A DNA stretch of 64,000 nucleotides from Pseudomonadales bacterium (GCA_020632255.1 JACKFX010000001.1:58734-122733), one strand, 5' to 3'. Positions 17,364-63,100 are shown, counted from the stretch's first letter. Numbers and translations are program-made. The notes: generated from the sequence alone by a model not told the origin.

Positions 17364-17373
17364 TATATCAATT

Positions 17374-28516: not shown

Positions 28517-28533
28517 TTTATTCCTCATTTGTG

Positions 28534-28548: not shown

Positions 28549-28742
28549 TCCTCAGCCTTTGCTCTGGACATTTCCTCGCAGAAGTTCAATCAGATTCGCG
28601 ATTCGCTACTATTTACATCTAATTAAGGAAGTCACATGCACTAAGCAGGAAGTTCGCAGGTGCTCACTTCTTGCTGGCGCGACGGGTTCAAATCAATACT
28701 GACAGCCACAAAAAAAGATAGCATGCTGCTATCTTTTTTCAT

Positions 28743-28770
28743 GGATGGATCTATTGGACTATGTTGGAAC
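28743..28770 (+). repeat. boundary motif copy (ggatggatctattggactatgttggaac), preceded by terminator hairpin 28713-28740
   Basis: Core matches 18/20. Hairpin aaaaaaagatagcatgctgctatctttttt is upstream. Confidence 0.6.
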
Positions 28771-28789
28771 CATTCTACTGATGTAATTG

Positions 28790-29161
28790 TCACTCTGTTT
28801 TAGCGAGAAGTGTATATCTATTGTGTCCATCCTCATCAAACTTTTTTGCTTTTGTTTGTGCAACCAATTTTTCCCAAACAATTTGTGCTTCAGGTGAAAG
28901 ATTTGTGCCAGAGTACAATGGAAACCCATACTTCTGTAGAGCGACTTGGTTCATTAGGTATAGTCTCCTCGTGGCAAGATTTCTTTTTATATGGTTTGCG
29001 TCAGTCCATGTCCAGTCGACAAAAGGCTTGTTTCGAAAATATTTTTGAGTTTCTGGGTTATTTGAATTTACATTGAATCGTAATGTCGAACATCCAATAA
29101 TATTGTCATTTTCTATGTCAACAAAGTATGTTAGCTCATCTTCATCTCCAGTGTCATACAT
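28790..29161 (-). CDS. hypothetical protein (123 aa)
   Basis: ORF only. Confidence 0.4.
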   Translation of the reverse strand: MYDTGDEDELTYFVDIENDNIIGCSTLRFNVNSNNPETQKYFRNKPFVDWTWTDANHIKRNLATRRLYLMNQVALQKYGFPLYSGTNLSPEAQIVWEKLVAQTKAKKFDEDGHNRYTLLAKTE

Positions 29162-29414
29162 TTTTATTTGTCTAGCTAAATATGTCTCTGTTCCGTCTGG
29201 ATGATGGTATAACTGGAACTCTTCAAAGTTGCCAGTTTTATAATCATCTGGATGTACTAGTGAAGCACTTTTTTTTCGAAGTGTTGCATTACATGCTGAG
29301 GAACATCTGCAGGTGTGATCTGTATAGGTACAAAAGATCTGGATTCTAAAATGTACCTTGGTGCTTCAGTCATGTTCAAAGTATATAGTAAGATATATAG
29401 TTCTATCAACAAGT

Positions 29415-29440
29415 GATTGCTCTGTTGGACTATGTTGGAA
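29415..29440 (+). repeat. boundary motif copy (gattgctctgttggactatgttggaa)
   Basis: Exact core. Confidence 0.6.
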
Positions 29441-29467
29441 GTAATCTTTCAGCTTTTCAGAAGTCTT

Positions 29468-29938
29468 TCACTCAGGAATTTTCATTTCCATAGTTGTGAA
29501 CTTAATTCCATTTACTTCTTTTTCATCTGAAACACTTTTAAAACCCAATGCTTCATAGGCTGTAACTGAATTTGGTGAAGAGTGAACGGTAATCATCTTT
29601 ACGGAAGAATTGTTTTGCTTAATTAATTTTATTGCTTGTACAAGTAATTGTCGTCCAATTCCTCGCTTTTGGTGTTGGGGATCTACGAAAAGCATTGAAA
29701 GATGATTATTTGATCTTATTTCAATAATACCCACTAATTTTTTGTCAATTTCTGCTTTCAATATCCAATGATCTTTTTGCAGTTGTTCTTCAATTGCTTT
29801 AGGAGTTATATATTTATAAAATTCTTCATTCCCTTGGTCAGAATAAAAATTTGCAACAGAACTATCAAAAACCATTTTTATAAATTGCGATAATTTAGTT
29901 GATTCAGATAAAACTGCCTTCGATATTTTCATATACAA
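29468..29938 (-). CDS. GNAT family N-acetyltransferase
   Basis: QHQKRGIGRQLLVQAI motif A. Confidence 0.65.
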   Translation of the reverse strand: MYMKISKAVLSESTKLSQFIKMVFDSSVANFYSDQGNEEFYKYITPKAIEEQLQKDHWILKAEIDKKLVGIIEIRSNNHLSMLFVDPQHQKRGIGRQLLVQAIKLIKQNNSSVKMITVHSSPNSVTAYEALGFKSVSDEKEVNGIKFTTMEMKIPE

Positions 29939-30042
29939 AAATTATATCAGGTTAGAACTTAATCCAGAAGAGAATTTGAGGTGTACTAATGAGGTATAAA
30001 ACCACGAGAAGAATTAGATTGATATATAAAGCTATATTTTCA

Positions 30043-30071
30043 GGGATGGCACTGTTGGACTATGTTGGAAC
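30043..30071 (+). repeat. boundary motif copy (gggatggcactgttggactatgttggaac)
   Basis: Exact 28-mer consensus. Confidence 0.6.
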
Positions 30072-30113
30072 TAATTTAATGTTTAATACAAATTCAAGTG
30101 ATATACTTCAGAT

Positions 30114-30842
30114 ATGTCAAAAATCATACTCAAAAAATATGGAAGTGGGAACACAGTTCTTGTAGCATTTCCTGGCTGGACACACCCAATTGAAAATGAA
30201 AAAGAATTTCTCAATTTATTAAGTAAAAAGTATACTGTTTACTCAGTCTGTTTACCTGGGTATGTTAAAAATAAAAACTCAAATAAATTTAATGATTTTA
30301 AAAACCTTGTTAGTGACATAGATAAAGAAATTAAAAAGATTAAAAGTAAAAACATTGTGTATATTGGTTTTTCAATGGGATGTAGACTAATTATGGAATT
30401 AGAAAACAAATATCCAAATAAATATAAAAAAATATTTGTTGGTACTCCTGTTCACAACTATAGAATACCACTATGGGCAAATTTGCTATTACTTAATTCA
30501 AATATTATTAATATTTTAAGAAAATCAAAATCATTCAAACTATTTATTGTTAACAAAGCTCTTAAAAATATATTAAATGATAATAAAGCAGTATTTAATA
30601 AAAATAGGAATGTCACTCTAACTGGTGCATTTGATTCTTTAATTGGCTTAATAAAAAGCGACAATACTTTCATAAAATATAAAAAAACAACTAATTTTAT
30701 TTATGGAAATAATGACAAATACTTATATGAAGCAAAAAAATATAATTTAAAAAGTTTATATATCATTGAAAACGCAGACCACAACTGTGTAAGAAATCAT
30801 GAGGAAGAGGTTGTAAGAATAATTGATAGGCTTGTTAATTAA
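30114..30842 (+). CDS. alpha/beta hydrolase-like protein, strongly AT-rich (GFSMGC nucleophile elbow)
   Basis: GxSxG motif and C-terminal DH. Composition is markedly lower-GC than the surroundings. A diverged 5' fragment of a homolog lies at 49288-49383. Confidence 0.5.
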   Translation: MSKIILKKYGSGNTVLVAFPGWTHPIENEKEFLNLLSKKYTVYSVCLPGYVKNKNSNKFNDFKNLVSDIDKEIKKIKSKNIVYIGFSMGCRLIMELENKYPNKYKKIFVGTPVHNYRIPLWANLLLLNSNIINILRKSKSFKLFIVNKALKNILNDNKAVFNKNRNVTLTGAFDSLIGLIKSDNTFIKYKKTTNFIYGNNDKYLYEAKKYNLKSLYIIENADHNCVRNHEEEVVRIIDRLVN

Positions 30843-30887
30843 AAATAATAGTTTAATTAAGATATGATATATAAAGCTATATTTCAT

Positions 30888-30905
30888 TGATGCCCGACTT
30901 GGATT
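30888..30905 (+). repeat. exact 18-nt copy of the tRNA-Gln 3' end (tgatgcccgacttggatt) followed by a conserved module
   Basis: Identical to 32498-32515. Followed by ...ggctcgcgcaggtgcgctcgtgagcccgtcgcgaac. Confidence 0.65.
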
Positions 30906-31056
30906 CACGATTCGCTGCTATTTGTATCTACTGTAGGAAGCTCATATGCACTAGGGTGGCTCGCGCAGGTGCGCTCGTGAGCCCGTCGCGAACGATTTCA
31001 AATAAAATTCTGGAACATATACAAAAAAAACAAGCGGATGCTTGTTTCTTTTGTAT

Positions 31057-31083
31057 GATGGCTCTGTTAGACTATGTTGGAAC
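31057..31083 (+). repeat. boundary motif copy (gatggctctgttagactatgttggaac), overlaps the last 3 codons of the LMW-PTP gene, preceded by terminator 31026-31050
   Basis: Core 19/20. Confidence 0.6.
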
Positions 31084-31500
31084 TTCTCTACCTGCAATCT
31101 CTGATAACAATAGTTCTATTTCATCTCTAACTTGTCTGACACCATCCATGGAACTTTCATATGGATCAGGAACCCCTTTATAAAGTATGTTCAAGCCACT
31201 TGAAACAATAAAGTCAGGTAAAATGCTTGGATCACAGAGAACAATTATTGTAGTTATATCCCGAAGCATTTCTTGAACTAAAACTTTTATTTTTTGCTCA
31301 GAAATATCGATGCCTTTTTCAAACATTGCTTGAATAATATCTTCTCTTGGATGAAAATTATATTTTTCCCTATAGTCATTAATCCCAGCACTTTTTGCAG
31401 AATCTTCACCAAACCAATGTTTCCAAAAACCTTCTGCCATTTGGCTTCGACCAACGTTGCCCTCACAAACAAAAAGAACTTGTTCATTTTCAATTTTCAT
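31072..31500 (-). CDS. low-molecular-weight protein-tyrosine phosphatase / ArsC-like (CX5R P-loop VLFVCEGNVGRSQMAEG)
   Basis: C-E-G-N-V-G-R-S P-loop signature. Confidence 0.6.
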   Translation of the reverse strand: MKIENEQVLFVCEGNVGRSQMAEGFWKHWFGEDSAKSAGINDYREKYNFHPREDIIQAMFEKGIDISEQKIKVLVQEMLRDITTIIVLCDPSILPDFIVSSGLNILYKGVPDPYESSMDGVRQVRDEIELLLSEIAGREVPT

Positions 31501-31580
31501 AGGGATATTGTATCAGAGAAAATCAGACGAGGAGTTCTAACCGTACTAACGAGGTCAAAATTTTCTTGAGGGAAAAACGT

Positions 31581-31608
31581 GGATGGCACTGTTGGACTAT
31601 GTTGGAAC
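31581..31608 (+). repeat. boundary motif copy (ggatggcactgttggactatgttggaac)
   Basis: Exact 28-mer consensus. Confidence 0.6.
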
Positions 31609-31725
31609 TGGGCTTAGAAAAAACGGAGCTATTTATTAGCAAGATTTCTTATATGCATTCATAGAATGAACTAGAACTTATTTCTTAAAAATTACGACAA
31701 TTCTATCAAAATATCTTTCAAAAGC

Positions 31726-32313
31726 TTATTTTATTTCATGTCCGTTGATTTCAACTGAATTATTGCCAAGGCGTATGTCATAGTTCTTTGCAATTCCAAC
31801 GATACCTCGTATTGCTTGGTCAGGACCGCCGACTTTGATTTCACCAGCCCAAGGGAGCTCTTTTTCTAGCTTTTCATTTACATTGACTAGCTTGTATTTA
31901 CCATCTCTCCAAATGTATATTTTTGTTCTGCCTCCTTCAGCAATCTTTTCAAATGCGTTGTACACTGAATTGGCATTAAATTGTTCGATAAAACGATGAT
32001 AGTCTTTTTCAGTAGTATTTATTATTTCTTCAAGATCTGAGTCTAACAGTTGTTCTACTTGAGACAAAAAACCCATTTCAGTTGGATCTAGCAGACTGGT
32101 TCCCCTGATAAACTCATTAAAAAAATTGGCTTTTTGTTCTCCTAAAAGTCGAGATATGCGTTTGTATTGTGTGGTGACACGTTGTGCATACGAGCGTGCA
32201 TTTTCGTTTGAGTGGGGTGTAGATTCAATCATAGCTAAAGTATACAGTATTTTTCTAAGTTGGAATATCTTTTTTAAGTAATTGAGCCTGTAACCATGGA
32301 ATCCAGTGAGCAT
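31726..32313 (-). CDS. hypothetical protein (195 aa; real start may be internal Met)
   Basis: ORF only. Confidence 0.4.
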   Translation of the reverse strand: MLTGFHGYRLNYLKKIFQLRKILYTLAMIESTPHSNENARSYAQRVTTQYKRISRLLGEQKANFFNEFIRGTSLLDPTEMGFLSQVEQLLDSDLEEIINTTEKDYHRFIEQFNANSVYNAFEKIAEGGRTKIYIWRDGKYKLVNVNEKLEKELPWAGEIKVGGPDQAIRGIVGIAKNYDIRLGNNSVEINGHEIK

Positions 32314-32390
32314 TGCTCATACTTGGCATGGAGGGATCATAATACTCTTCCTCACTTTGTCCGCCGTGAAGAATGATTGCGTTTTTCATA
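32256..32390 (-). pseudogene. possible N-terminal fragment of an RBBP9/YdeN-type serine hydrolase (MKNAIILHGGQSEEEYYDPSMPSMSNAHWIPWLQAQLLKKD)
   Basis: 44-codon ORF in a different frame from the 195-aa ORF. ILHGG…HWIPWL matches the N-terminus of the Ser_hydrolase family, then terminates. Confidence 0.3.
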
Positions 32391-32499
32391 TGTAAATTAT
32401 ATCAGGTTAGAACTGTCGCTCGAAGGGAAATTAAGGTGTACTAATGTGGTAGAAAGCATAAAGAGATTTAGATTGATATATAAAGATATATTTTAAGTG

Positions 32500-32570
32500 A
32501 TGCCCGACTTGGATTCGAACCAAGATTGACGGCTTCAAAGGCCGCTGTCCTGCCATTAGACGATCGGGCA
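32500..32570 (-). tRNA. tRNA-Gln(TTG)
   Basis: U1:A72 acceptor TGCCCGA/TCGGGCA, anticodon stem gcggc/gccgt with loop CTTTGAA, T-arm CTTGGTTCGAATCCAAG. Confidence 0.85.
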
Positions 32571-43028: not shown

Positions 43029-43058
43029 TTGGCCCGGACTTTCAGTCCGGGCCATTAT
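43029..43058. terminator. hairpin ggcccggact-ttc-agtccgggcc
   Basis: 10-bp perfect stem between convergent genes. Confidence 0.5.
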
Positions 43059-43885
43059 TGTTTAATCCGATAACCATCGGGAGTGTTTTCAATGAGCTCT
43101 TCTGCTAATAAATCTCCAAGCACTTTCTCAAAGTACTTCTTCTCACCTTTAATTTCTTGTTTCAACTCAACTTCAGTCAGGAGTGGGTGTTGTGTCAGGT
43201 ATCGAATGATCTCTCCCCTCACCTGTCGCGGTGAGCCTTCAAATCGGGATTGTTTGGTGTGATGTTTACTATTTCGACTGGGATTTGGAAAGATTTTTTT
43301 CAGGTGGCTGCCATAGTCCATCAAGGCAGCGTACCACTCTCGTGGGTTATTGGTATAAATAGTTGCTTCAATGAGAGGTAGTAGCTCAGCATCTTCAACA
43401 TTGGTCCGTTTAGGAAAAAAATGATAAATATAGATGGAGCGAATATTTGTTTCAATCACAACTTCTGGATTATTAAAGGCAAAAGTACTGATTGCAGTGG
43501 CAGTGTATGGACCAATACCAGGCAGTTTTTGCAGCTCATCAGCAGTACTCGGAAAGGTGTCTTCAAGTTCAGTATGCACTTTTTGAGCAGTTTGCCATAA
43601 AAACTTGGCACGACGGTTATATCCCAACCCCTGCCATAAGGATAAAACTTCAGCGAGAGATGCTTGGGCCAAAACTTTAGTAGAGGGAAACGTTTCAAGA
43701 AATGCCAGGTATTTAGTGATGACGCGTTCAACTTGAGTTTGTTGAAGCATGAGTTCGGAGACAAGAATCTTATAGGGATCGGTGGTGTTTCTCCACGGCA
43801 GTTCATAGCGGCCGTGTTTTGAGTACCACCACAAGATGAATTGCTGGAAGTTGGCTACATCAGTTTTTTTCACTTTTCCAAGCAT
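43055..43885 (-). CDS. MutY-like HhH-GPD adenine DNA glycosylase, no Fe-S cluster cysteines visible
   Basis: WWYSKHGRYELPWR N-terminus, LPGIGPYTA HhH-GPD loop. The C-terminal region lacks the Cx6Cx2Cx5C motif. Confidence 0.55.
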   Translation of the reverse strand: MLGKVKKTDVANFQQFILWWYSKHGRYELPWRNTTDPYKILVSELMLQQTQVERVITKYLAFLETFPSTKVLAQASLAEVLSLWQGLGYNRRAKFLWQTAQKVHTELEDTFPSTADELQKLPGIGPYTATAISTFAFNNPEVVIETNIRSIYIYHFFPKRTNVEDAELLPLIEATIYTNNPREWYAALMDYGSHLKKIFPNPSRNSKHHTKQSRFEGSPRQVRGEIIRYLTQHPLLTEVELKQEIKGEKKYFEKVLGDLLAEELIENTPDGYRIKQ

Positions 43886-44498
43886 AACACAGAGACGTAC
43901 TGTGTTTTAGATATATCTCTTAGCTTTAATCTCACTCTTGCATAAATAGTGCATGTGTCTAAGCAATATTTTTTGTAATTCACCTTCAAAACATATGTGT
44001 GCAGAAGCGATTTATTTCGGAAAAACTATGTGATGTTGTGAGTATTTTCAGCTACGAAATGTCTGTGGAAAGTTGTGTCTTCTTGTCTGGATTTTAAAAA
44101 AACTTGTTGTAGCCAGTGAGGAAAACTGAAAGCGACGTTTAGTTAAGACCTATGTTGTGCATCCGAGTGCGTGTAGCTAATACATTTCGATTGTTCTTTT
44201 TAAAACAATTATTAGTCGAGTATATGTACACAGTTGGGATGATATGTTTTCAATAACTTCTAGCTTTTTTTAATAGTCGACGCTTTTGTTGCACGGCTTT
44301 TTACCAAGAACGGCAGTGTGTAAATAAGCTCTTTATTGCTAAAGAGCTTATTAACCTTCACACATTGGGGCGAACCAGATAAGAATACTCCAATTACGTA
44401 GATCAAGTTTTTTTTGAAATATGCTATAATTAGCTCATATTTACTAAATTATCATTTTGTGCGCAATCACATACAAAATAATTTAAGAAAGGATAGCT

Positions 44499-45214: not shown

Positions 45215-45523
45215 TCAAATCACTGCAATTATTCCTACAAATACTACTGATCGTCTTGAAGAATCTCTTTGTACGCTCTCTAATTTGAATGAACTCATTA
45301 TCGTCACTAGCTCTGTTTCCATCTTAAGTACCAATTGACCTGTGAATAATTTGGGTACAACTCTCTCAACTTGAGTCTGTTGGAGCATTAGCTCAGAAAC
45401 TAACACTTTGTAAGGATCTGTAGTCTTTCGCCATGGAAGTTCATATCGACCATGTTTTGAGTACCACCACAGGATAAAACGCTGGAAGTTATTACTATCG
45501 GTATTTTTCACTTTTCCAAGCAT
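45215..45523 (-). pseudogene. diverged duplicate of the first ~60 codons of the mutY-like gene
   Basis: MLGKVKNTDSNNFQRFILWWYSKHGRYELPWRKTTDPYKVLVSELMLQQTQVERV is about 85% identical to the N-terminus of 43055-43885, then diverges into nonsense. Confidence 0.5.
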
Positions 45524-45579
45524 AGCGCAGGATACTCTGATGAGTTGCTCGTAACACTAAAACGAGTTTATCACCACGC

Positions 45580-49986: not shown

Positions 49987-50079
49987 TTCAAAATAGTATA
50001 ACATATAGAAAAAAGACCTATAAATAAGTCTTTAATCACAGTGCCGACAACGTTGTACCAAATTAAAACCTTCTATGAA

Positions 50080-50961
50080 TTAAATACTCATAAAAATAAG
50101 GCCTACAACACTTATTAGTGAAGCAATAATTTTTATTTTCCAGTTATCAGTTTCTTTTAAGAAAATGAAACCTAATATAACGGTTAGGATTACAGATAGT
50201 TGTCCAACAGAAACAATTAAGGAAATTGAATTAGATAGAACAATTGCTTTATAGTACAAAATTGCTGCAATTCCCCAAATCATGCTCATGATAAAAAGTT
50301 GTTTGATGATGGCTCTATTTTTTTTGATAATTTTTATTTTTTTTATCTCGGTTGGTTTGACTAGAATAGCCAGTAATCCAGGAAGAATGAACAGTATTGC
50401 GAGAGTTGGTGAAAGCGCAAGTGTTTGGTAGATGCCTTTATCGTTTACTAAGGCTAATCCAGACAATAAAACCGAAAGAAAAGCAATTCCTTCGCCCCTT
50501 GAGAAATGAGATAGCTTTGTTTCTTTGTCGTGTACTACAGCAAATACACTGACTAAAATTAAAAGAGTTCCAAATAATTGTTGTTGGGTGAAAGTCTCCC
50601 CCAACAACAATAATGCTAAAACAATTGAGACTAGCGGAGAAAGTGTTTCAATAATTGAGTACTTCGAAGCAGTGATGCTGTTGAGTGCCTTAAATGAAGT
50701 AAATGTTGCGGAAAACCATAGAATAGCACCAATAAAAATTTTCAAGGTCATCTGTGGTGTTATTGTTGTAAAGTATCCAATATATTCATTGCCAAATCCT
50801 AATACTATTGAGAAGAAAATTACTGCTATTCCTCCTGCTATTTGGAAAAGAACGGTATACATATAGTTTAAGTTATCGTCATCAGCAGAAATTTTTTTAC
50901 GAATTATCGATGCTGCAGAGTATAAAAAAACTGAAGCAAGAGTTAAATATATCGGAGTCAT
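50080..50961 (-). CDS. EamA/DMT family transporter
   Basis: 10 TM helices in a two-fold repeat. Confidence 0.5.
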   Translation of the reverse strand: MTPIYLTLASVFLYSAASIIRKKISADDDNLNYMYTVLFQIAGGIAVIFFSIVLGFGNEYIGYFTTITPQMTLKIFIGAILWFSATFTSFKALNSITASKYSIIETLSPLVSIVLALLLLGETFTQQQLFGTLLILVSVFAVVHDKETKLSHFSRGEGIAFLSVLLSGLALVNDKGIYQTLALSPTLAILFILPGLLAILVKPTEIKKIKIIKKNRAIIKQLFIMSMIWGIAAILYYKAIVLSNSISLIVSVGQLSVILTVILGFIFLKETDNWKIKIIASLISVVGLIFMSI

Positions 50962-51346
50962 GCCTGAATTATATCAGACATTTTTAGGTTCTAGAGTTCA
51001 AGGTTCTGTGAAAAGAATCTCTCAAGGAGAGAGTTTTGTAGACAACGTTGTGTCAAATTAGAACCTTTCATCAACAAAAACTGTTAGATAATACTCATAC
51101 ATTGCTTCAATAGATCTAGGGATTGTCCTAGTTATTTGATATTCTGAAAAGTGTTGAGCATTCATTTTTATAGTTACTGATTCTGAAAGTTTACTAGCAA
51201 GACATGTTGTTATATCTTGTCCAATGCGCTCTGTATGAGAGTAAATACTGCGTGTAGATAATCTAGGGCCCACAATACGTGTTGACATCCCCTTATCAAC
51301 TGGCATATTATGAGATAATTAATATATTCAATTAGAAATTATATGT

Positions 51347-53386: not shown

Positions 53387-54343
53387 TTAATCTGGTGCTT
53401 TTAAAATAGCAACGCATGCATCATCATATTTTGAATGTTGTGATAAGGTTGACATTATGTTTTGAGCTCTCTGAATAAGAGCTTTTGCTAGCATTCTTAA
53501 ATTACTTCTTTTGGAAGATCTGTCATAGCTCTTTTGATACTCTTCCGTTATCGCTACAGGTAATCCTGATGGGGATATATTATCAGGAATACCGTCAGAC
53601 ATTGCAAAATAAATATCGCCTGCTTGCAGTGGTATAACTAAAATATCTATATCTTTTGGAGCGTTAAGACTACCAACGGATTTGTAAATTTGATTTCTAT
53701 GGGGATGTTGATGAGCTTCCTGAATTGTAATTACGCCTGCGGCAAGAAGAGCTCCAACTAAGCTATGGTCTTTGGTTAATTGTATAAGGACTGCAGTTTC
53801 AGGATTATACTTATATATTCTACTGTCACCCACATGAGCAACTACCAAAAATCTATTTTTACCATCGGGACTGGCACAGACAATTCCTGCGCTGACAGTG
53901 GTATCAAGTTCGTCATTACCAGTTTCAGTCTGAAGGGATTTTATTTGATTTCTTGCTTTGAAGATGGCGTTTTTTAATTCTACGATTGCTTGGCTAATTG
54001 TTGGAGTTTTCTCAAATTTATCTAAACCCATTAGTTGAATTAGAACGAATTGAGCTGCTCTTGCAGAGTCCTTTCCACCCGAACCGACGCCGTCCATTGC
54101 TGCAATAATTCCACTTTTACCTCCAGCAATTTGTTTTGCTAAAGCTCTATCAGCAGAATAATCTGGGTGGCGAGGATTAGCCGCAACAGTTGAAGCTACC
54201 TCAATATTAGTTGAAGCTAACTCAATATTAGTTGATGCTACCTCATTATTAGTTGATGCTACCTCATTATCAATTGAAGCTACCTCAGTTTGGGGAGGTA
54301 CTAAATCTTTAGGTTGTATAAATCTGCTATCATCTTCAGACAC
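53387..54343 (-). CDS. PP2C-family Ser/Thr phosphatase with an N-terminal (E/D)(V/L)ASTN(I/N) heptad tandem repeat
   Basis: AAMDGVGSGG, VGDSRIY, LTKDHS, SDGI PP2C motifs. Five 21-bp tandem repeats at the 5' end. Confidence 0.65.
   Translation of the reverse strand: MSEDDSRFIQPKDLVPPQTEVASIDNEVASTNNEVASTNIELASTNIEVASTVAANPRHPDYSADRALAKQIAGGKSGIIAAMDGVGSGGKDSARAAQFVLIQLMGLDKFEKTPTISQAIVELKNAIFKARNQIKSLQTETGNDELDTTVSAGIVCASPDGKNRFLVVAHVGDSRIYKYNPETAVLIQLTKDHSLVGALLAAGVITIQEAHQHPHRNQIYKSVGSLNAPKDIDILVIPLQAGDIYFAMSDGIPDNISPSGLPVAITEEYQKSYDRSSKRSNLRMLAKALIQRAQNIMSTLSQHSKYDDACVAILKAPD
54189..54293 (-). repeat. 5 × 21-bp in-frame tandem repeat inside the PP2C gene 5' region
   Basis: Units read gttgaagctacctcaatatta / gttgaagctaactcaatatta / gttgatgctacctcattatta / gttgatgctacctcattatca / attgaagctacctcagtttgg. 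Confidence 0.7.
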
Positions 54344-54577: not shown

Positions 54578-54730
54578 GTCTGGCAAACAGGACTGCTCGC
54601 TTGCTCTGCTAGCTGTGCGGTGCTCATACTGAATGAAAAAAAAGTTATTTTTCATCCGCATGGTTAACTAAAGTTTCACACCAAAGCTTCATCAACACAC
54701 AAAAAACCCACCCAAAAGGTGGATATTATC
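54578..54730 (+). repeat. Pro-array unit P0 (diverged att gtctggcaaacaggact + module A-like + terminator-like)
   Basis: Shares ggactgctcgcttgct…gctgtgcg…catggttaacta and caaagcttcatcaacacacaaaaaacccacc with P4/P5. Confidence 0.55.
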
Positions 54731-54847
54731 TTCATGTTTAAATCATAGCAGGATAGATTCATTTCTACTACTTGTTTACTTCTCATTTAGAAATTGAAAA
54801 GTGAAAAGTAAAAACCCCTTAGATTCTAAGGGGTTTTATATGTAACA

Positions 54848-55132
54848 TTACTTTTTGCTGTTCCTTCTTGCAAGGATGAACAATCCCGCAGGGATTATCC
54901 ATCTGGCAAGACTGAACATTATTAGGGCAACCACTGCCCCACTTATCAAGAAGGAAACAATCGCGTTAGCGATGTATCCTCCGAATACGATCCATGCGCT
55001 TGTTTTGCAAGCACATAAGGAAATGAAAATGGGCAACACACTCCAATTTGCTACCGTCGAAACAGTAGCTATAGTTGCCCAAAGGATTATGGTGAGTACC
55101 ACCCACGTTTTTTTCTGAAGCTTGGTGATCAT
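54848..55132 (-). CDS. small membrane protein (3 TM)
   Basis: Hydrophobic ORF. Confidence 0.35.
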   Translation of the reverse strand: MITKLQKKTWVVLTIILWATIATVSTVANWSVLPIFISLCACKTSAWIVFGGYIANAIVSFLISGAVVALIMFSLARWIIPAGLFILARRNSKK

Positions 55133-55618
55133 CTTGCACTTACTCCTTTGATTTGAAAGTATATGTTAATGTTCATTTTCAAGACACAGATACATGTATC
55201 TGTGTAATGATAATGTTATTGTATACCACAAAAGTTAGTACGCAAGTTCTTATTGCTCTATAGTAATAAATTAAAAGTAGACATAATTTTTTTCAAATAA
55301 TTACACAGAAAATTATTTTTTCGACAGTATTTTATACAAGATATTTGTGGTCTGTACCACTTTTGGCATTTGATCTTATTGTAAACTAAACATGACTAAG
55401 TATTTTTATTTCGGCTATTATTATAAATAATATGAATAAAATAAATAACTACTTCTTATGCAGATGAAAGAAAAAGCCCGTGGGATGATTTAGAGCCTGA
55501 AAAAGATGCCTTCATGAAATAGCAAGGTTGTTCATTTATCAAATGCATTCCAGAATTTTCAAGTGTCTGGAAGGGAGTTAGAATATACAAATTGCGTGAA
55601 TTTAGTGCTGATCCTTAG

Positions 55619-56365
55619 TCAATCAGGTTCATTTGCCACCATCCTAATTTCTACTAAGTCAGACTCAGACAATAAATGTCCTACCTTAGCCATTTTCTCG
55701 ATAATTGCTTCAATGTTTTTTCTATCCTCATTATTTAGATTTCCTCTAACTTTTCTGCCATATAATGCAGCAGTATTGAGCATACATCTTACTAATGAGT
55801 GAGGTGATTCTTCATCTTGGTTTTTTGGTGATAAATCAATAAAAGTAAAACCAAGTGCTTCATCATAAAAAATATTGTCTGGCTTTGATGGATCAATGCT
55901 TAAGCCATTGTTAAAAAGAATTTGAATATCAGAAACTAATTTTCGAAAATGTTCTTCTGGGACAGATGCAATTAATTTAATCTTTTTACTCCAAGTTTCA
56001 TAATTATCATGACCGTTATGTATCTCTTGGCCTACTGCTCTCTCCATTATAGAAGCAGCTTTTCCATCAGGCATAAATCCAACTTTTACAATTTTGGGAG
56101 TGTTTACACCTTCAGGAACTTGATCTAAAGCCAACTTGAGCTCAGTTATCATTGGCATATTCCCTTCCCAAGTAGACCTGAATACACGGATTACTAAATC
56201 AGGATAACCTTTTATTTCGTAAACATTGCAATTACCACCTCTGCCAATCAATTGTCCTAAAGTAAGAGAGCAAAATTCTGGAATCTTTTTATCTTCGACC
56301 CCAACATTTTTGTTCTCGCACAGTGATCTATTTTCAGTTTCTATCATAGAATGATAATAGCACAT
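55619..56365 (-). CDS. protein-kinase-like fold protein (Gly-rich loop LIGRGGNCNVYEI, catalytic-loop-like IDPSKPDNIFYD)
   Basis: Motifs resemble ePK/APH-like kinases. The annotated N-terminal 25 aa run through repeat unit P1, so the start is taken at the internal Met. Confidence 0.45.
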   Translation of the reverse strand: MCYYHSMIETENRSLCENKNVGVEDKKIPEFCSLTLGQLIGRGGNCNVYEIKGYPDLVIRVFRSTWEGNMPMITELKLALDQVPEGVNTPKIVKVGFMPDGKAASIMERAVGQEIHNGHDNYETWSKKIKLIASVPEEHFRKLVSDIQILFNNGLSIDPSKPDNIFYDEALGFTFIDLSPKNQDEESPHSLVRCMLNTAALYGRKVRGNLNNEDRKNIEAIIEKMAKVGHLLSESDLVEIRMVANEPD

Positions 56366-56404
56366 AATAATTAGAAATCTGACAAAAGTCTGATTTTTAA
56401 TTAT

Positions 56405-56550
56405 GTCGGGGAGACAGGATTTCTCGCTAGCTTCGTTCACTTCAGATGCTCGTACTGCATAAGGCTAACGCAATTTGTAACTTGCATAGCGAACCAAAGA
56501 CTCAGCACTTTGCTTACTCCAATAAATGAAAAATAGCAGCCTGTTCAATT
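56405..56550 (+). repeat. Pro-array unit P1 (att gtcggggagacaggat + diverged module ending gcatagcgaaccaaag)
   Basis: Sequence similarity to P3/P4. Confidence 0.55.
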
Positions 56551-56758
56551 TGTCATTAAAAATGGCACACGATCTGGTGACTTGGAGTCATTTTTAAATG
56601 GCAACAACAGCAAGCCTAGCGAAAAAAAACTAAAAATATTCTAAAAAAAATTCTGTATTGCAATTTTAGTATAACAAAAACTATAAATGAAACCATTTTG
56701 ATGTAATTCAAAATGTAGTGTGTCGACAACCTTGTACCAAATTAGAACCTATTTCAAA

Positions 56759-57580
56759 TTATGCAGTATCAATCATAACTGCCATTTTCATTTTTAAAAA
56801 TTCGCTAAAGATAACATTGACACCTGTCTCATATTTATACCACTCACCCGGACTTAGTTCTTTTGATTTAGGATCTGAATTAACACAAATTATATCTACT
56901 TCATTAGTATATTTTTTAAGATGAACCCATGCCCTTCTTTGAGCAAACCAGGAAACCATTGTCGCGATATTTTTATATTCTATATTTAATGTATCTAATA
57001 AATTCAGTCCTGAACGAACATTATCTGCAATAGTAATTGATTCTGATTCAATAATAATTTTTTCTTTGGGCACACCCAATTTAATAGCTTCTTCTCTAAA
57101 AACTTTTGCTTCAGATTCAGATTTTTCTTGTGAATCGTATCTTGATCCTCCAGTGATTAGTATTTTGTTTACGTTGTTTTTTTTGTAAATAGTATTAACT
57201 GCTTTTTGTATTCTTCCTATGTCTTTACTGCCAAATACAAAGAGAATATCTATATCTTTTGGAATAGAATGTTCTTCGCTTAAGTAGTTTTCAATATCCA
57301 CTAAAATAGAAATTAATTTTGTATCTTTATTTTTTATGGCGGAAATTGTTTTTAGTGCCACTTGCTCTCTTAATTCATTCCCTTGTGCAATTAAATCTTG
57401 CCAATGTTTTTGATTTTCAAAAAAGTCAATATTAATATTGATTGCCTTCATCCAAGAGATAAATAGATCGAATCTAGGAAAATGGTCATAGGTAGAAATA
57501 GTTCGCTTTGCTTCAATCTCTAGAGCCTCTTCAAGAACATGACTATTTGGTAGATGGCTAAAGTGCTTTCTAGATTGCAT
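56759..57580 (-). CDS. DUF218/YdcF-like family protein
   Basis: ILITGGSRYDSQEKSESEAKVFREEAIKLGVPKEKIIIESESITIADN pattern. Confidence 0.5.
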   Translation of the reverse strand: MQSRKHFSHLPNSHVLEEALEIEAKRTISTYDHFPRFDLFISWMKAININIDFFENQKHWQDLIAQGNELREQVALKTISAIKNKDTKLISILVDIENYLSEEHSIPKDIDILFVFGSKDIGRIQKAVNTIYKKNNVNKILITGGSRYDSQEKSESEAKVFREEAIKLGVPKEKIIIESESITIADNVRSGLNLLDTLNIEYKNIATMVSWFAQRRAWVHLKKYTNEVDIICVNSDPKSKELSPGEWYKYETGVNVIFSEFLKMKMAVMIDTA

Positions 57581-57643
57581 TAATCTGATTATAGCAGCAA
57601 TGGAGAAGTTGAATATTTACTAAACTTGAATTAACTAGTATGT

Positions 57644-57687
57644 GTCGGAGTTGTGGAACGGTTTAATGACTCAGTTCTAGATCAAGA
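57644..57687 (+). repeat. unit P2' (gtcggagttgtggaacggtttaatgactcagttctagatcaaga); second copy at 58243-58286
   Basis: Two ~85%-identical copies, each containing the hairpin ggaacggtttaat.actcagttcc. Confidence 0.5.
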
Positions 57688-57715
57688 GTCTGATACTATT
57701 TGATTAAAATTAGGG

Positions 57716-58015
57716 TTAACAACCTGCATACTCAACCATAAATGTTTCTTCATCAGAATCCAAATCTCGTAAAGCTTGTTCAATCTTTTTTTGAGCTGCA
57801 AGTAATTGTGGTTTTTTACTAAAGTTTGGTTGATTCGCTATTTTTGCCCACTCCAAACGTAGTTGCCTGCGTTTGTTAGTGATTGCTTGTGTAATGTATT
57901 GATATTGTAGATGACGGTCTAGTTCTTGCCATTCTTTATATTGGCTTAAATAATCAATTTGGTATTTTCCAAGTTCAATTGATTCTTTAAATGAAATAAT
58001 TCTATTGTTAGTCAT
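57716..58015 (-). CDS. hypothetical protein (99 aa)
   Basis: ORF only. Confidence 0.35.
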   Translation of the reverse strand: MTNNRIISFKESIELGKYQIDYLSQYKEWQELDRHLQYQYITQAITNKRRQLRLEWAKIANQPNFSKKPQLLAAQKKIEQALRDLDSDEETFMVEYAGC

Positions 58016-58083
58016 GGAGTAGATTATATCAGAGAAAAGTTAATGAAATTGTTTGCTTTTACACTAATAATTGATATAGAACT

Positions 58084-58292
58084 GTCGGGGAAACAGGACT
58101 CTTCCCTCGCTCCGCTCAGTCCAGGGTGCTCAGATCTTTTTATGGAATAGTTATTTTATTTCGCACAGCGAACCAAAGCTTCATTCTATGGTTCACCCAA
58201 TAAACCAAAAAAACAGACTAAAAAGTCTGTTTCTCTGTTTTGTCGGAATTATGGAACGGTTTAATAACTCAGTTCCAGATCAAGAAACCTAT
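58084..58292 (+). repeat. Pro-array unit P3 (exact att gtcggggaaacaggact + module + terminator aaaaaaacagactaaaaagtctgttt + P2'-like element)
   Basis: Exact 17-nt tRNA-Pro 3' copy at 58084-58100. Confidence 0.6.
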
Positions 58293-58409
58293 AGAACTGG
58301 GATTATTTGATATACTTAGATATCTTAAACAAGAAAAACAGTACGAAAACGGAACTTAAGTATAATTTTTGAGAATAGAAACGACTACTCTACTCAGCAT
58401 ACTAGCCAA

Positions 58410-58967
58410 TTACCACAACTCATCACCAAAGAATAGTGGGCTACTTAAAAATTCATTTTTGTATTTTTGAGCTTTATCTGACACAAACTGCATAGCTACT
58501 CTTGATTTTGTTACTTTAGGATTAGACGCATCTCCTTCTAATACAGGAATATCATTAAAAATCCATCCACATTTTTGGTAAAAGGAACTATTTTCATCTT
58601 CACAGCTATAGAGAACAATATCTCTATCTACTTGTTGATCAATGTATTTCATTCCTTCTTGAACTATTTGAGTGCCAAATCCTCGCTTTCTGAATGATGG
58701 ATAGGTTAAGACACCTGTTAAACCATACAACGTAAACTCAGTACCTAAGTGTTTCATTACTCTTGAAACAACCTGAACATGTGAGATAAGCAGATTTCCA
58801 TGAGTTAAGAGTATTGAAATTGGATTATCTTCTGGTGTTGTGATCCAGTCGCGGTAGAGGTTCTCGTTCTCGAATCCTTCTGACCAAACAATCCGCTGAA
58901 AGGAAAGTATTTGGTAGAGCCATTTCTCAGGAAGATCGTTTTGTTTGTATATGAGTAGATCGGTCAT
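58410..58967 (-). CDS. GNAT family N-acetyltransferase
   Basis: FRKRGFGTQIVQEGMKYI motif A. Confidence 0.6.
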   Translation of the reverse strand: MTDLLIYKQNDLPEKWLYQILSFQRIVWSEGFENENLYRDWITTPEDNPISILLTHGNLLISHVQVVSRVMKHLGTEFTLYGLTGVLTYPSFRKRGFGTQIVQEGMKYIDQQVDRDIVLYSCEDENSSFYQKCGWIFNDIPVLEGDASNPKVTKSRVAMQFVSDKAQKYKNEFLSSPLFFGDELW

Positions 58968-58994
58968 GTTTCAATTATATCAGTAGAGGAATTA

Positions 58995-59333
58995 TTATGG
59001 AGTTAGTAACAGTGCCCAGGCAATCATACTTAAAATCCATACAAGCATTAAAAGGATATACTTATCTTGTTTGATAAAAGTTTTTCTTTTCCAATTTCGT
59101 ATGTGTATATATGGAATGAGAAGTTGGAAAAAAATGGCATTTATCCATCCCCAATGGTATATATAGATAAGCCATTCCGGTAAGGTTAATGTATCCTCAA
59201 CAATGTTTCCAATAGTATCCAGTGGAGTTGTAATTCCAAGCACATCTTGTGTTATATCTTTTATGAAATGAAAAAGTAGCACTACTGAAAGTAGAGAAAC
59301 AAACATTTTCCAGAGTGGGAAGATTTTTTGCAT
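58995..59333 (-). CDS. small membrane protein (3 TM)
   Basis: Hydrophobic ORF. Confidence 0.35.
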   Translation of the reverse strand: MQKIFPLWKMFVSLLSVVLLFHFIKDITQDVLGITTPLDTIGNIVEDTLTLPEWLIYIYHWGWINAIFFQLLIPYIHIRNWKRKTFIKQDKYILLMLVWILSMIAWALLLTP

Positions 59334-59397
59334 ATACCTCTTGAGTATAGCAGAGAGACAAGAAGTGTGTTTACTTTAGAAATAATTGTTGGTACAT

Positions 59398-59557
59398 GTC
59401 GGGGAAACAGGACTGCTCGCTTGCTTTGCAAGCTGCGCGATGCTCGTACTTGATGAGGTTGACACGATTTATAACTCGCATGGCGAACCATAGGTCTAGC
59501 CCATTGCTTGCCCCAATAAACCAAAAAAACAGACTAAAGAGTCTGTTTTTCTGCTTT
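59398..59557 (+). repeat. Pro-array unit P4 (exact att + module A: gctcgcttgctttgcaagctgcgcgatgctcgtact…actcgcatggcgaaccatagg + terminator)
   Basis: Module A is about 90% identical to module A of the tRNA-Lys array units. Confidence 0.65.
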
Positions 59558-59678
59558 GTCGGGGAAACAGGACTTCTCGGGCTGCGCCCTGCGAGGCCTT
59601 CGGCAGCGAACCAAAGCTTGACTCCAAAGCTTCATCAACACACAAAAAAACCCACCTAAAGGTGGGTTTTTTTATGTG
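59558..59678 (+). repeat. Pro-array unit P5 (exact att + module B: tctcgggctgcgccctgcgaggccttcggcagcgaaccaaag + terminator), abuts tRNA-Pro
   Basis: Module B matches module B of Lys-array unit K0 (15146-15210). Confidence 0.65.
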
Positions 59679-59752
59679 TCGGGGAAACAGGACTCGAACC
59701 TGCGACCTCACGGTCCCAAACCGCGCACTCTAGCCATCTGAGCTATTCCCCG
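59679..59752 (-). tRNA. tRNA-Pro(TGG)
   Basis: Acceptor CGGGGAA/TTCCCCG, anticodon stem cgcgg/ccgtg with loop TTTGGGA, T-arm GCAGGTTCGAGTCCTGT. Confidence 0.85.
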
Positions 59753-60072: not shown

Positions 60073-60154
60073 CGTTCTATCTATTTGAACAATGAAATTA
60101 TATCACTAGAATAGTCTTACTTGAACTACGAGGAAATGGGGTTAAAATACAACA

Positions 60155-63100
60155 ATGATCAAAGAGTCGCTTAGACTGCATCCTTCGGAAGCGGATACTC
60201 GTTTTAATCCTAGCCAAGCAGAAGTACATCCATATACAGTTGGTGAGGTGTCAGGCAGCATTCAGATTAATAACAAAGGTAGCATCTTAGATGGAATGGA
60301 ACTGCCAATCTATAATGAAAGGCCTTGGTTTAGTCCTAATGAACCCTCGGCACTTCTATCGGCAATGCAAGATCCGGTACGCCGGCTAGTATTACTTGTT
60401 GAAGATGTCACAAATCAATCATTTACTCAAGGTAACCAAACATATCGGGGCGAAGGTCGAAAAGCACTTATTCATCGTATTCTTGTGAGTGTTACAGATT
60501 CAGAGGAGTATGCCAGATTAATTGATGGTATAGCCAGCCGTAGTAGTGGTATTTCTCAGGCAGTTATTAGTGCCACCATTCAGTTGTTAAGTAATACAAA
60601 TTATTTAGAAGCTGTCATAGGTTCTGTAGTTGATGGATCGACTAACTCAACAAGTCATCGTCGGAGTAGAAATTTTGAAGCGGCAATGCGCGCGGCCAGC
60701 TGGCAGGTACAACAGGAACGGGATCCAGGATTTAATAACCAGACACTCGAGGGGCACTACTCCGTTCAAACCGTCCTCGATTCTAAAATGATGGCAGATC
60801 TGGCAATGGATTTTTGGAAGAAACAACAGGAAAATCTATTGGCACAAGCTGAGAGTACCCCATTTGGTGCATCTGCCGAACAAGAACTCACCCTTTTTGA
60901 AGCTACTGGAAATAAAGCTTGGGAAATGAGCGATGAATCATTACATGGTAGCGAAACAACTCAGCGCTTTGAATTAGATTTCAGAGCTGCGGTGGTTGGG
61001 GTAACTATTTTAAATAAAATTGCATTAATTCGAGAAGCCACTGATTTTCTTAATTCAAGCGGTTGGGATCACACAACAACGCCAAATCAGGTGCGGCAAA
61101 ATGTATCCAGAACTCAGGCTCAATTTCAACAAGAACTGAGTGGCTCTGACCCAAATAGGGCTTTTCTTCGTCTACAAGAGGTATTTAGACTTGATCCGAG
61201 TGATCCAGCGGTACTCACATTCCTATTTACAGAATTTGGATTGGCATCAACCCAGATTTCTGAACTTACTCAAACACAAGAGGGTCGAAAAGATTTGGAG
61301 AAAATTATCAAACGAGCACGAGCAATAGTTACTCATGGTTTTACTAGAGATGAAAATCACCACTTTTCGGAGATTTCATTTGATAGTAAACCCAGACATT
61401 TTATTATTCTGGTGCATGGCTCACCATACAAAATTGAGTATTACAATTCGCAAGGTTTTGTTTCTCAAGAGGAGATTTTACGAATAGTTCGAGAGCTTGA
61501 GTATAGACATTCAACTCAAAGTACTGATCCCCAGGCTCTACAGCAGAGACAGACAGTCGCCGGTATTTGGACATCATTAAGTTATAATCCAAAAAAAAAT
61601 ATCATTTTATCAGATCCAGTATCTCTTGGAGCATTTATTAGAAAGTATCTCAAATCAGAATATAAGAATTCTTCTGATGTCGTGAGTCAAATAGCCTATT
61701 CTATTCGAGCATTAGCCACGGCAGATTTCTCTGTATCCATTGGTGCAAATGAAGTTCCTGCTTTTGGAAAAGATGATTTGGGTGGGGAGATGACTCCACT
61801 CGTATTTGGTGGTCACCACATTGATGTTTCCGAAATTTCCGGTAGTTTACAAATTAATTCTCAGTTTGACCATGGAATCCTGGACGGTCGCGAAGCTCAG
61901 GAAACAAACGCTGAATTAGTATTTAGATTACATCAAATCATGCTCGCTCCAGAAAGTGTGTTATCTAGCGCAACCAACGCATCTGGCGCATCTTTTGTTG
62001 AGAGGTTGTGTCTTGGTGAAAAAAATGGTGAGATGTTCTTTTCTGACTTAAAAATTCCTGGAAACACTAATGAGCATTGCGATACCTTACCCGATTTACC
62101 TGCGGCACTTGTGAATTCGCCCAAATCATTGACCGAAGAGCTTGGTAGAAGTCTTACTGAAACAGTAAGAAACGAACTTGAAGATCGATTGCAGGCCTTA
62201 GAGAAAATGACGCTTAAAGAGCTTTTTGAAGAGACTGGCAGTCTGATCGATGAGTGTATTGATACCGCTGTTGCCGTACAGACCAAAAACATTGCTCCGA
62301 GAGCGTGGGAGGAGCATTTACTTCAGAATCCGGATATCACTAAAAAAAGTCCAAAAGCGATTCAGGCTATTAAAAATGTGTTTTATGATGATTTAGAAGC
62401 ACATTTGTATCAGGCCGTGTGCGCATTTCTGAGTGGTGATCATGAGTTGATGGCCGAAATCTCAAATCATCTGAATTTAGTGGGGTATGATTTTTCAGTT
62501 CCCGTTGGGTTGTATGGAGGGACTGATCTTTCTCAATTATCTGCTGTAGAATATTCTTTGCTTACTTCCGAACTGAATTCGTTAGCAACTAAGACTAGTA
62601 AATATGACCTCCTCTCACAGTATGAACAAATATCTACGTTTGTTCAAAAACTGAAACAAAGATTAGTTGTTATCGAAAAACAAAGACAAGAAGCCACTAA
62701 TATCGTTGGATACCTAGATGCGATGTCATATCTTTCTCCAATCTATGACGAGACCTACGCACGACTCAGTTCAAATGAAGAAAACGATTTAGAACAATTA
62801 ATTTTGGATACCGAATGTGCACTCAAGCAAATTTCTACAGTGCTGATTCACTGTATGTATGACGTCGATTTTCTTGGTAGATTTTCAGTAAATCCATTTC
62901 CTATTCCAGAATCTAACCCACTATTGACCGAAATTTACAATCTACAATTACATAAAATCAGTTCGGTCACGGCGATACATTGGGCCCAAATTATGTCTGA
63001 CATGGTACGGATCAGACTTGGTGATTCGAGGCCAGCCTTATATCAATTGCCCACTTCTCTAAATATCGCAGAAATCGGTGGTAAAGGGAGAATTGATTTT

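Follow-up and report, generated by a model that had tools for sequence, protein, structure and literature searches.

What builds a row of single-gene units at the 3' end of a tRNA gene when no recombinase gene lies among them? The question is raised by a 64,000-nucleotide (nt) stretch of DNA (GCA_020632255.1, JACKFX010000001.1:58734-122733; hereafter the window, with positions counted from its first letter), in which a tRNA-Pro(UGG) gene (59678-59752, minus strand; ARAGORN, Rfam tRNA score of 61.7 bits) is followed by partial copies of its own 3' end, each fused to a conserved non-coding module. We hold, with moderate confidence, that this region is part of a hypervariable integron-like cassette array that is anchored at the 3' end of tRNA-Pro and was built by site-specific recombination acting in trans. 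Judged from the core genes of the window (Elp3, an archaeal-type PPAT/dephospho-CoA-kinase fusion, an LCP transferase and RecQ) and from the source names of identical proteins, the host is a member of Candidatus Woesebacteria (Patescibacteria, candidate phyla radiation, CPR). On the same grounds we rejected a cyanobacterial host, with a Prochlorococcus or tycheposon source for the DNA, to which GC content and the partial tRNAs had first pointed. Neither integrons nor classical mobile elements are features for which CPR bacteria, with their very small genomes, are known, and the ways in which they gain and exchange accessory genes are poorly understood. Our literature searches returned no account of such arrays in CPR, the nearest descriptions being those of tycheposons and of classical tRNA islands.

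Besides a tRNA gene truncated at position 1, the window contains 10 complete ones (ARAGORN, Rfam), and at least four tRNA genes carry arrays of single-gene units that together make up about one third of the 64 kb. One NCBI contig of a metagenome-assembled genome and Logan contigs of four further sequencing runs show the identical tRNA-Pro arrangement, which is therefore not an assembly artefact.

Copies of the tRNA-Pro 3' end and the module fused to them

The array lies downstream of tRNA-Pro, whose 3' end is at 59678, toward lower coordinates. The 17-mer GTCGGGGAAACAGGACT, the reverse complement of this 3' end, spans the 3' half of the T-loop, the 3' strand of the T-stem, the 3' strand of the acceptor stem, the discriminator and one further nt. 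An earlier reading made from the sequence alone (the sequence-only reading) had listed exact copies at 58084, 59398 and 59558 and diverged copies at 54578 and 56405; all five were recovered, the last two with 2 mismatches, together with the exact match at 59678 within the tRNA gene itself (6 matches for 0.09 expected, a number reached in 0 of 100 shuffles). On the plus strand, each partial copy is followed by the conserved module and then by a hairpin with flanking A and T runs.

A hidden Markov model (HMM) of the module detected 9 copies in the window, all on the plus strand and in the same orientation relative to their own tRNA, with E-values of 1e-21 to 4e-44. Matches occurred at tRNA-Pro (54577, 56404, 58083, 59397 and 59556) and at tRNA-Lys(CUU) (15137, 16297, 17384 and 18634), and at no other tRNA of the window. 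The tRNA-Lys array (15137-18865, minus strand, tRNA at 18791-18865) has one B-type unit, at 15137, and three identical units made of an 18-nt tRNA copy, module A and a terminator, which start at 16297, 17384 and 18634; its modules K1, K2 and K3 are 100% identical despite different flanking genes. Module similarity extends over ~95-110 nt of complex sequence, and the objection that only terminator sequence is shared therefore fails. The match claimed between module B of unit P5 at tRNA-Pro and module B of the Lys unit K0 was confirmed, with 78% identity over 64 nt. The figure of about 90% given for module A of unit P4 and its Lys counterpart was too high: identity is 73% over 110 nt and 83% over the best 81 nt, and only the first 36 nt attain ~92%.

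The junction between module and tRNA-derived segment always falls at the same T-loop position, between ...GGACT and KCTCG.... The proposal that one module is carried on different tRNA 3' ends holds for Pro and Lys, and also for Pro and Trp in the relatives described below; the modules at tRNA-Gln and tRNA-Leu(UAG) are similar in build to A/B and divergent in sequence. The accompanying suggestion that the tRNA-derived segment sets attachment specificity found no support.

Order of units and cassettes

Reading outward from the tRNA (all features on the minus strand), the array starts with two units devoid of open reading frames (ORFs). Unit P5 (59558-59677; E=7e-25) comprises a terminator (~59640-59672), module B (59575-59639) and an exact 17-nt copy (59558-59574), its tail and terminator being 84% identical to those of unit P1. 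Unit P4 (59398-59557; E=4.5e-44) comprises a terminator (59522-59553), module A (59415-59520) and an exact 17-nt copy (59398-59414). They are followed by spacer S (59334-59397), which has a promoter-like TATAAT just 5' of the ATG, by genes for a 112-amino-acid (aa) membrane protein (58995-59333) and a GNAT acetyltransferase (58410-58967), and by a cassette end that we call a D site (TGTCGGAATTATGGAAC...GTTCCAGATC; 58241-58285), which has TGTCGG in common with the tRNA end, is 91% identical to a copy at 57643 and has a homologue in the relative L045. After this D site come the ORF-less unit P3 (58084-58240; E=7e-35; terminator 58206-58237, module A 58101-58205, exact 17-nt copy 58084-58100), a 99-aa ORF without family match (57716-58015; also called as a gene in L001-L004), the second D-site copy (57643-57687), which has no adjoining module, spacer S2 (57581-57642), a DUF218/YdcF gene (56759-57580) and, at the 3' end of the latter, a D13-type site (GTGTCGACAACCTTGTACCAAATTAGAACC; 56720-56761). 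The D13 family has members at 50041, 51036 and 56720, and such a site is also kept after the DUF218 gene of L045. The series continues with unit P2 (56405-56560; E=3e-35), which has a diverged 17-mer (56405-56421) and a module A (56422-56530) 74% identical to that of P4, then an ORF of 242-273 aa (55619-56347/56440), a gene for a 94-aa membrane protein (54848-55132), a terminator, and unit P1 (54578-54727; E=2e-37). The latter is a chimera in which an A head is joined to a B tail and a B-type terminator (54706-54724), next to a diverged 17-mer (54578-54594). A gene for a PP2C-type phosphatase (53387-54343) adjoins P1; its N-terminal part contains five in-frame 21-nt tandem repeats (54188-54292) that code for heptads of the (E/D/I)(V/L)ASTN(N/I) type.

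In the distal part of the island, an EamA transporter gene (50080-50961) has D13-type sites on either side (50041-50082 and 51036-51077). D13 sites thus flank DUF218 and EamA as far as 50041, and the island therefore reaches well past 54578; the region at 54.6-59.7 kb is the tRNA-proximal half of an island that extends from ~42-50 kb to 59.7 kb. Farther from the tRNA, we also observed a 182-nt direct repeat with 76% identity (43711-43892 and 45349-45530) and a fragment of an HhH-GPD glycosylase gene (43055-43885) duplicated in an ORF at 45215-45523, which suggests rearrangement within the island.

The sequence-only reading had the cassettes bounded by the 17-mer. This is too simple: many cassettes are bounded instead by the ~45-nt D-type sites, and the boundaries at 57643, 58241, 56720, 51036 and 50041 had been missed. 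The D sites at 57643 and 58241 start with TGTCGG as the tRNA end does and then differ from it, only 5-8 nt being in common. The idea that D sites arose by divergence from the 3' half of their cognate tRNA was rejected, since past those 5-8 nt they align no better with cognate tRNAs than with others. The units made of terminator, module and 17-nt copy are separable and are preceded immediately by the tRNA or by a D site; the cassettes mostly have one gene per unit of 0.4-1.3 kb, with GNATs, glyoxalase, hydrolases, small membrane proteins and proteins of unknown function as cargo. Cargo at tRNA-Pro is co-oriented, each cassette having its own TATAAT-bearing spacer and terminators standing between units; cargo at tRNA-Lys and tRNA-Gln is of mixed orientation. 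Terminator-like hairpins, for which the tRNA-sense strand gives the best fit, are enriched (12 for 2.8 expected); promoter-like matches show no enrichment. Of the cargo named earlier, DUF218, GNAT and PP2C stand. The protein at 55619-56440 described as kinase-like has only a weak resemblance to a kinase G-loop, without Pfam support and with the NleH1 kinase as top PDB match at E=0.7, and the 99-aa ORF at 57716-58015 had been left out. Orthology between this protein and the kinase-like cargo of the relative L040 was rejected, their match being 23% over 61 aa only.

Junctions at related loci

We searched for homologues of the module with a pattern scan of a genome collection, which yielded 35 matches, about the estimated chance level for a pattern that was too loose, and of these only L039 and L040 were found to be real by nhmmer. 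A stricter pattern scan of metagenomes yielded 3 loci (two duplicates of L039 and one chance match), and a pattern scan of viral sequences yielded a single locus, without HMM match. Orthologous loci were reached through proteins 57-73% identical to the DUF218 cargo. L040 (uncultured Patescibacteria) has the module at its syntenic tRNA-Leu/tRNA-Pro locus, where tRNA-Pro is followed by a terminator, module A, a tRNA copy and an APH-family gene. In L039, L043 and L044 (Candidatus Pacebacteria), the tRNA-derived partner of the module is a tRNA-Trp 3'-end copy that lies two cassettes from tRNA-Trp itself, with the fusion again at the same T-loop position. In L059, tRNA-Pro(GGG) is immediately followed by a hairpin and a divergent module of ~115 nt, the latter fused to an 18-nt copy of the 3' end of tRNA-Pro(GGG).

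Comparison of these loci locates the breakpoints. Spacer S is kept beside differing genes and differing left-hand partners (positions 344-417 of L046 are 78% identical to window 59414-59341), and S together with ATGTCGG is conserved and then continues in three unrelated ways: into the tRNA body in L046, where tRNA-Pro is directly followed by S, three genes and the conserved PPAT gene; into a D site in L045, where the order is tRNA-Pro, a gene for a 154-aa protein, the D site, then S and DUF218; and, in the window, into the 17-mer of P4 with its module A. Similarly, S2 with TGYCGG continues as a D site in the window and as the 17-mer and module A in L040. Partner switches of this kind place the breakpoints at the extreme 3' end of the tRNA. 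Alternative partners at TGTCGG are what site-specific recombination at the tRNA 3' terminus would be expected to leave, and they support it. The island also varies in size and content: tRNA-Pro and PPAT are 17.7 kb apart in the window and 3.1 kb apart in L046, and homologues of DUF218 and EamA have differing neighbours in five relatives (L045, L046, L057, L058 and L059), the EamA homologue lying beside or near DUF218 in L045 and L058.

An array of this kind might instead be what remains of tandem islands in decay, with successive tRNA-Pro-targeting elements or prophages having lost their own integrases and most of their genes, the module being a leftover attR arm and there being neither present activity nor a cassette system. 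We regard this as unlikely. Displaced tRNA 3' fragments at island ends are given as a classic sign of tRNA-integrating elements in passages of a preprint on tycheposons (bioRxiv 10.1101/2020.12.28.424599), and decay would suit both the divergence of P1 and P2 and the lack of polymorphism within the species. It is harder to reconcile with the content of the array, since scans of all array ORFs at 50-59.7 kb with Pfam and NCBIfam detected no recombinase, integrase pseudogene, phage gene, or replication or packaging hallmark, and the units measure 0.12-1.3 kb with one gene each, three having none. Nor would decay leave Lys units that are 100% identical, D-type sites conserved between species, one spacer joined to three kinds of partner, and a module that persists beside tRNA-Pro in another species with compensatory changes. 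Were the arrays scars of decayed islands after all, the finding would be an ordinary one.

Possible fold of the module

In a tRNA-sense alignment of 8 A-type copies, 91.7% of cells are paired, compared with 83.8% in column shuffles (0 of 500 reach the observed value) and 16-42% with slid partners. In 6 pairs both partners have changed, compensatory changes occur in the hairpin beside the 17-mer, and several conserved U.G pairs, which would be mismatches on the opposite strand, point to the tRNA-sense strand. This constitutes moderate evidence that the module may fold on that strand, as RNA or as single-stranded DNA. Pairing between the distal module end and the 17-mer reaches -19.6 kcal/mol in P4 (p=0.006 relative to shuffles), and the distal ends of P4 and K3 resemble the cognate acceptor 5' strand.

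The fold could also be that of a small structured tRNA-like RNA gene made of the module and its 17-nt tail, its 5' end mimicking the acceptor 5' strand and its 3' end being the true acceptor 3' strand in a tmRNA-like layout; duplication together with its neighbours would then make the cassette look secondary. We find this quite improbable. The acceptor mimicry that suggests it (distal UGGGG(C)AA in P4 for CGGGGAA at the 5' end of tRNA-Pro, GGGAUAA in K3 for GGGUCAA in tRNA-Lys, each pairing with its own 3' segment) is missing from the Trp version, B-type units at Pro and Lys have the same distal end, and the closing stem is not significant in 6 of 8 units. A T-loop-like GGTTCG motif is present in all copies but the chimeric P1, yet a T-arm cannot form in most copies, as read from their sequences. 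The compensatory changes and conserved U.G pairs on the tRNA-sense strand would fit a transcribed RNA, but promoter prediction gave none for it, and immediately 5' of it, in sense orientation, stands a terminator. In Rfam, only the tRNAs reach the gathering score, a permissive search giving sub-threshold matches nearly all of which fall on terminator hairpins, and the junction swaps at TGTCGG are left unexplained.

Other structural ideas were set aside. A distal module end that covaries with tRNA identity to close a long hairpin was kept as a lead only, the pairing being significant only in P4 and K3, the cross-duplex matrix unspecific, and the B units sharing one distal end at Pro and Lys. 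A split T-arm, produced by insertion into the T-loop of a pseudo-tRNA, was rejected on reading the sequences, T-stem pairs being present in K3 (4/5) and not in the Pro or Trp versions. A retroelement-like primer binding site, with the plus strand complementary to the tRNA 3' end, was likewise rejected, there being no reverse transcriptase and only an imperfect match to the CCA-tailed tRNA.

Site-specific recombination as the proposed explanation

The reading that we prefer, a cassette array built in trans at the tRNA-Pro 3' end, would operate as follows. A tyrosine recombinase would be supplied in trans, the candidate being an Xer/IntI-like protein encoded at 237-1049, and would carry out conservative site-specific recombination between sites that have the last ~6-7 nt of the tRNA in common (CCGACA, tRNA sense). 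Such sites would take the form of the tRNA gene itself, of the ~45-nt D sites that close single-gene cassettes at their 3' ends (each cassette running from promoter spacer S through the gene to the D site), or of the ~120-160-nt ORF-less units (intrinsic terminator, module A or B, and a 17-nt copy running from the T-loop to the 3' end of the tRNA). Any two directly repeated sites could recombine, with excision or insertion of the intervening DNA, and stacked, reshuffled cassettes would result. In the third form of site, module A/B would supply a conserved non-coding arm. Its most likely role would be that of a portable landing pad or of an arm for attachment, whether of the attP/attR kind or folded in the manner of attC, and it would also bring a terminator for the tRNA or the upstream gene. 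Under this scheme the units would be mobile and perhaps still active, the tRNA-sense strand in folded form would be a plausible substrate, and each difference between loci might have arisen in either direction.

Several observations weigh against it. There is no recombinase in or beside the Pro array, and the candidate may be merely a housekeeping dimer resolvase. The divergence of P1 and P2 could mean that the array is old and inactive, and within the species, in contigs from 5 sources that are all identical, we saw no excision product, circle, empty site or polymorphism. Units of 120-160 bp are very small as circular recombination substrates. Past their first 5-8 nt, D sites are by alignment score no closer to the cognate tRNA than to other tRNAs. 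The consensus energy of the module is weak (-3.2 kcal/mol, from an alignment of only 8 related sequences), and its distal end pairs significantly with the 17-mer in P4 and K3 only, not in 6 of 8 units. Finally, homologous recombination between identical 160-290-nt units could yield some of the same patterns. As a full account, however, homologous recombination, unequal crossing-over or gene conversion between 120-290-nt repeats without a dedicated site-specific recombinase is very unlikely: it would produce the 100% identity over ~110 nt among the three Lys modules, the 97% identity over 291 nt of repeat units K1 and K2, the A/B chimera P1 and the 64-nt perfect repeat flanking the recombinase-bearing segment, but the D-type junctions have only 6-8 nt in common with the tRNA and therefore too little for RecA-type recombination, modules join unrelated tRNAs at exactly one T-loop nucleotide, and cassettes end in conserved short sites with inverted or direct sub-repeats.

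If a recombinase acting in trans does build arrays at tRNA 3' ends with a shared module, it would constitute a compact gene-capture platform distinct from integrons and tycheposons, and one that offers a candidate enzyme along with concrete site sequences to test (the CCGACA core, the D sites and module A). A wider proposal, which we put forward as doubtful, is that CPR possess their own integron-analogous form of gene capture, in which a highly conserved Xer/IntI-like "Cand" recombinase would act in trans on folded single-stranded sites of ~45-160 nt embedding a tRNA 3' end, and a portable module (A/B and relatives) would make any tRNA (Pro, Lys, Trp, Gln, Leu) an acquisition platform. If true, such a system would explain the large flexible gene pools of symbiont genomes of ~1 Mb.

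The candidate recombinase and the tRNA-Leu(UAG) array

The sequence-only reading had called for a search for a shared trans-acting integrase. Such an enzyme is not encoded in the array, and Pfam and NCBIfam scans of all window ORFs found a single recombinase, 54 kb from the Pro array, to which we infer a link. This tyrosine recombinase (237-1049, minus strand, 270 aa; Pfam Phage_int_SAM_4 and Phage_integrase) scores 218 bits against the NCBIfam integron integrase model TIGR02249, in two stretches and below the cutoff of 265, and 215 against XerA (cutoff 220). With 270 aa for a TIGR02249 model length of 315, it lacks the IntI-specific insertion, and proteins of its kind have been classed as Xer-related (PMC8138268).

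The recombinase gene lies in an array at tRNA-Leu(UAG) (1-5775; tRNA at 1-76, followed by a hairpin terminator), the only tRNA-linked structure of the window that has one. A 64-nt perfect direct repeat (166-229 and 5712-5775, 5.5 kb apart) ends in the tRNA-Leu(UAG) 3' end and contains the inverted repeat TATCCAGAT-ACGAAGTA-ATCTGGGATA. Between the two copies are the recombinase gene and four plus-strand genes (ADP-ribosyltransferase-like, HNH and two unknowns), each of the four preceded by a 167-nt repeat (1141, 2039, 3133 and 4134) with GTTAGGC...GCCTAAC, in a layout that looks integron-like. The exact 13-mer ATAACTTCGTATA, which equals a loxP arm, occurs at 1100-1112, between the recombinase start and the first 167-nt repeat, and 2-mismatch variants (ATTACTTCGTATC) occur in both copies of the 64-nt repeat (195-207 and 5741-5753); this 13-mer may be a binding motif of the recombinase.

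More than 6500 homologues of the recombinase were found at E<=1e-30. The best 120 are 72-83% identical, nearly all ~270 aa long, and come from Woese-, Moran-, Portnoy-, Shapiro- and Gracilibacteria; conservation across such divergent lineages seems unusually high. In the loci examined, the homologues face runs of small genes, restriction-modification genes included, and in other CPR genomes we saw no tRNAs and no module beside them in these loci. In L056 (Shapirobacteria), and in no other of these loci, 54-nt repeats ~1.5 kb apart (341-394, 1798-1851 and 3393-3446) have CCGACAACGTT in common with D13 sites, and the D13 site at 50041 of the window also has GTGCCGAC in common with the tRNA-Leu(UAG) 3' end; D13 cassettes may thus be linked to the recombinase-bearing array. 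Directly 3' of the homologue in L053, at the end of an ENA contig, are two tandem 150-nt repeats that are 95% identical (7869-8168).

Other features of the window

The cargo of the tRNA-Lys array comprises a GNAT, a glyoxalase, a second GNAT, an alpha/beta hydrolase and EamA, and a composite of ~290 nt (18-nt tRNA copy, module A, terminator and promoter-bearing segment) recurs between the genes. At tRNA-Gln(UUG) (26909-32570), six D-type repeats of ~45 nt (CTGTTGGACTATGTTGGAAC core) separate genes that stand singly (GNAT, alpha/beta hydrolase, low-molecular-weight phosphatase and unknowns), tRNA-Gln 3' copies at ~28535 and 30891 are fused to two larger GC-rich modules, and the ~105 nt that lie 3' of tRNA-Gln recur 3' of one D site. 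The D sites at Gln and Lys have direct sub-repeats, and those at Pro have arms 14 nt apart. At the end of the window, an ORF of at least 1285 aa without Pfam match (60146-64000, plus strand) starts 75 nt from tRNA-Leu(UAA) and runs past the window end.

Comparison with known systems

Like sedentary chromosomal integrons and clusters of attC sites lacking integron-integrases (CALIN), the arrays stack mostly single-gene cassettes, often promoter-poor or self-promoted, with structured repeats (45-160 nt here) between them. Cargo rich in GNATs, glyoxalase-type proteins and unknowns is common to both, as is the presence of near-identical repeats within one array (the Lys units here, homogeneous attC sites there); the recombinase may act in trans in both, the sole recombinase of the window scoring best on the integron-integrase and XerA models, and there is evidence of strand-specific folding of the repeats. 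Unlike in integrons, the anchor is a tRNA 3' end and not an attI site beside intI, several tRNAs per genome carry arrays, and a tRNA fragment and a terminator are built into the repeats. No IntI-type integrase adjoins the array and no recombinase is encoded in the region at 50-60 kb, the sole recombinase of the window having 270 aa, no IntI insertion and a score below the family cutoff. The cassettes have their own promoter spacers, with terminators between them, whereas integron cassettes are promoterless and expressed from Pc. By eye, we found neither the attC boxes R'' (RYYYAAC) and R' (GTTRRRY) in the Pro D sites and modules nor an R''/L''-L'/R' consensus; the 167-nt repeats beside the recombinase do have GTTAGGC...GCCTAAC, in an order reversed relative to attC boxes.

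Integrative mobile elements exploiting Xer recombination (IMEX) and the pdif modules of Acinetobacter plasmids are small gene modules lying between short sites and moved by an Xer-type recombinase encoded elsewhere, pdif being 28-bp XerC/XerD sites that alternate in orientation on plasmids. The arrays resemble them in having small gene modules at short, putative recombinase sites, the trans-acting Xer-type enzyme being here a candidate only. They differ from pdif modules, which are not tRNA-derived, have no structured module of ~100 nt and are plasmid-borne, in being anchored at chromosomal tRNAs. A dif-like architecture (two ~11-bp inverted arms and a 6-8-bp spacer) is seen in TATCCAGAT-ACGAAGTA-ATCTGGGATA of the 64-nt repeat beside the recombinase, whereas the arms of the Pro D sites are 14 nt apart.

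Displaced tRNA 3' fragments reportedly mark the ends of tRNA-integrating islands in the Islander collection. As in classical tRNA islands, such a fragment lies at each boundary here (17 nt from the T-loop to discriminator +1, in three exact copies), the junction between element arm and tRNA identity block falls in the T-loop, and the tRNA gene is left intact. The arrays depart from them in having no integrase per element, miniature units without cargo, one family of arms at several different tRNAs, and additional, non-identical D sites.

Tycheposons of Prochlorococcus, as described in passages of the preprint cited above (bioRxiv 10.1101/2020.12.28.424599), are kb-scale elements with their own deep-branching tyrosine (or serine) recombinase and hallmark replication or packaging genes, and these passages describe no module common to different tRNA sites. 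The units studied here are of 0.12-1.3 kb, have no element-borne recombinase and no replication or packaging hallmark, and belong to a host of the CPR. According to the same passages, the two nonetheless have in common an island beside specific tRNAs, Pro(tgg) being one of seven used by tycheposons, flanks formed at the island-associated tRNA by the full gene and a partial copy, partial tRNA copies that divide successive insertions, variation that peaks beside the tRNA, and a cargo of adaptive flexible genes.

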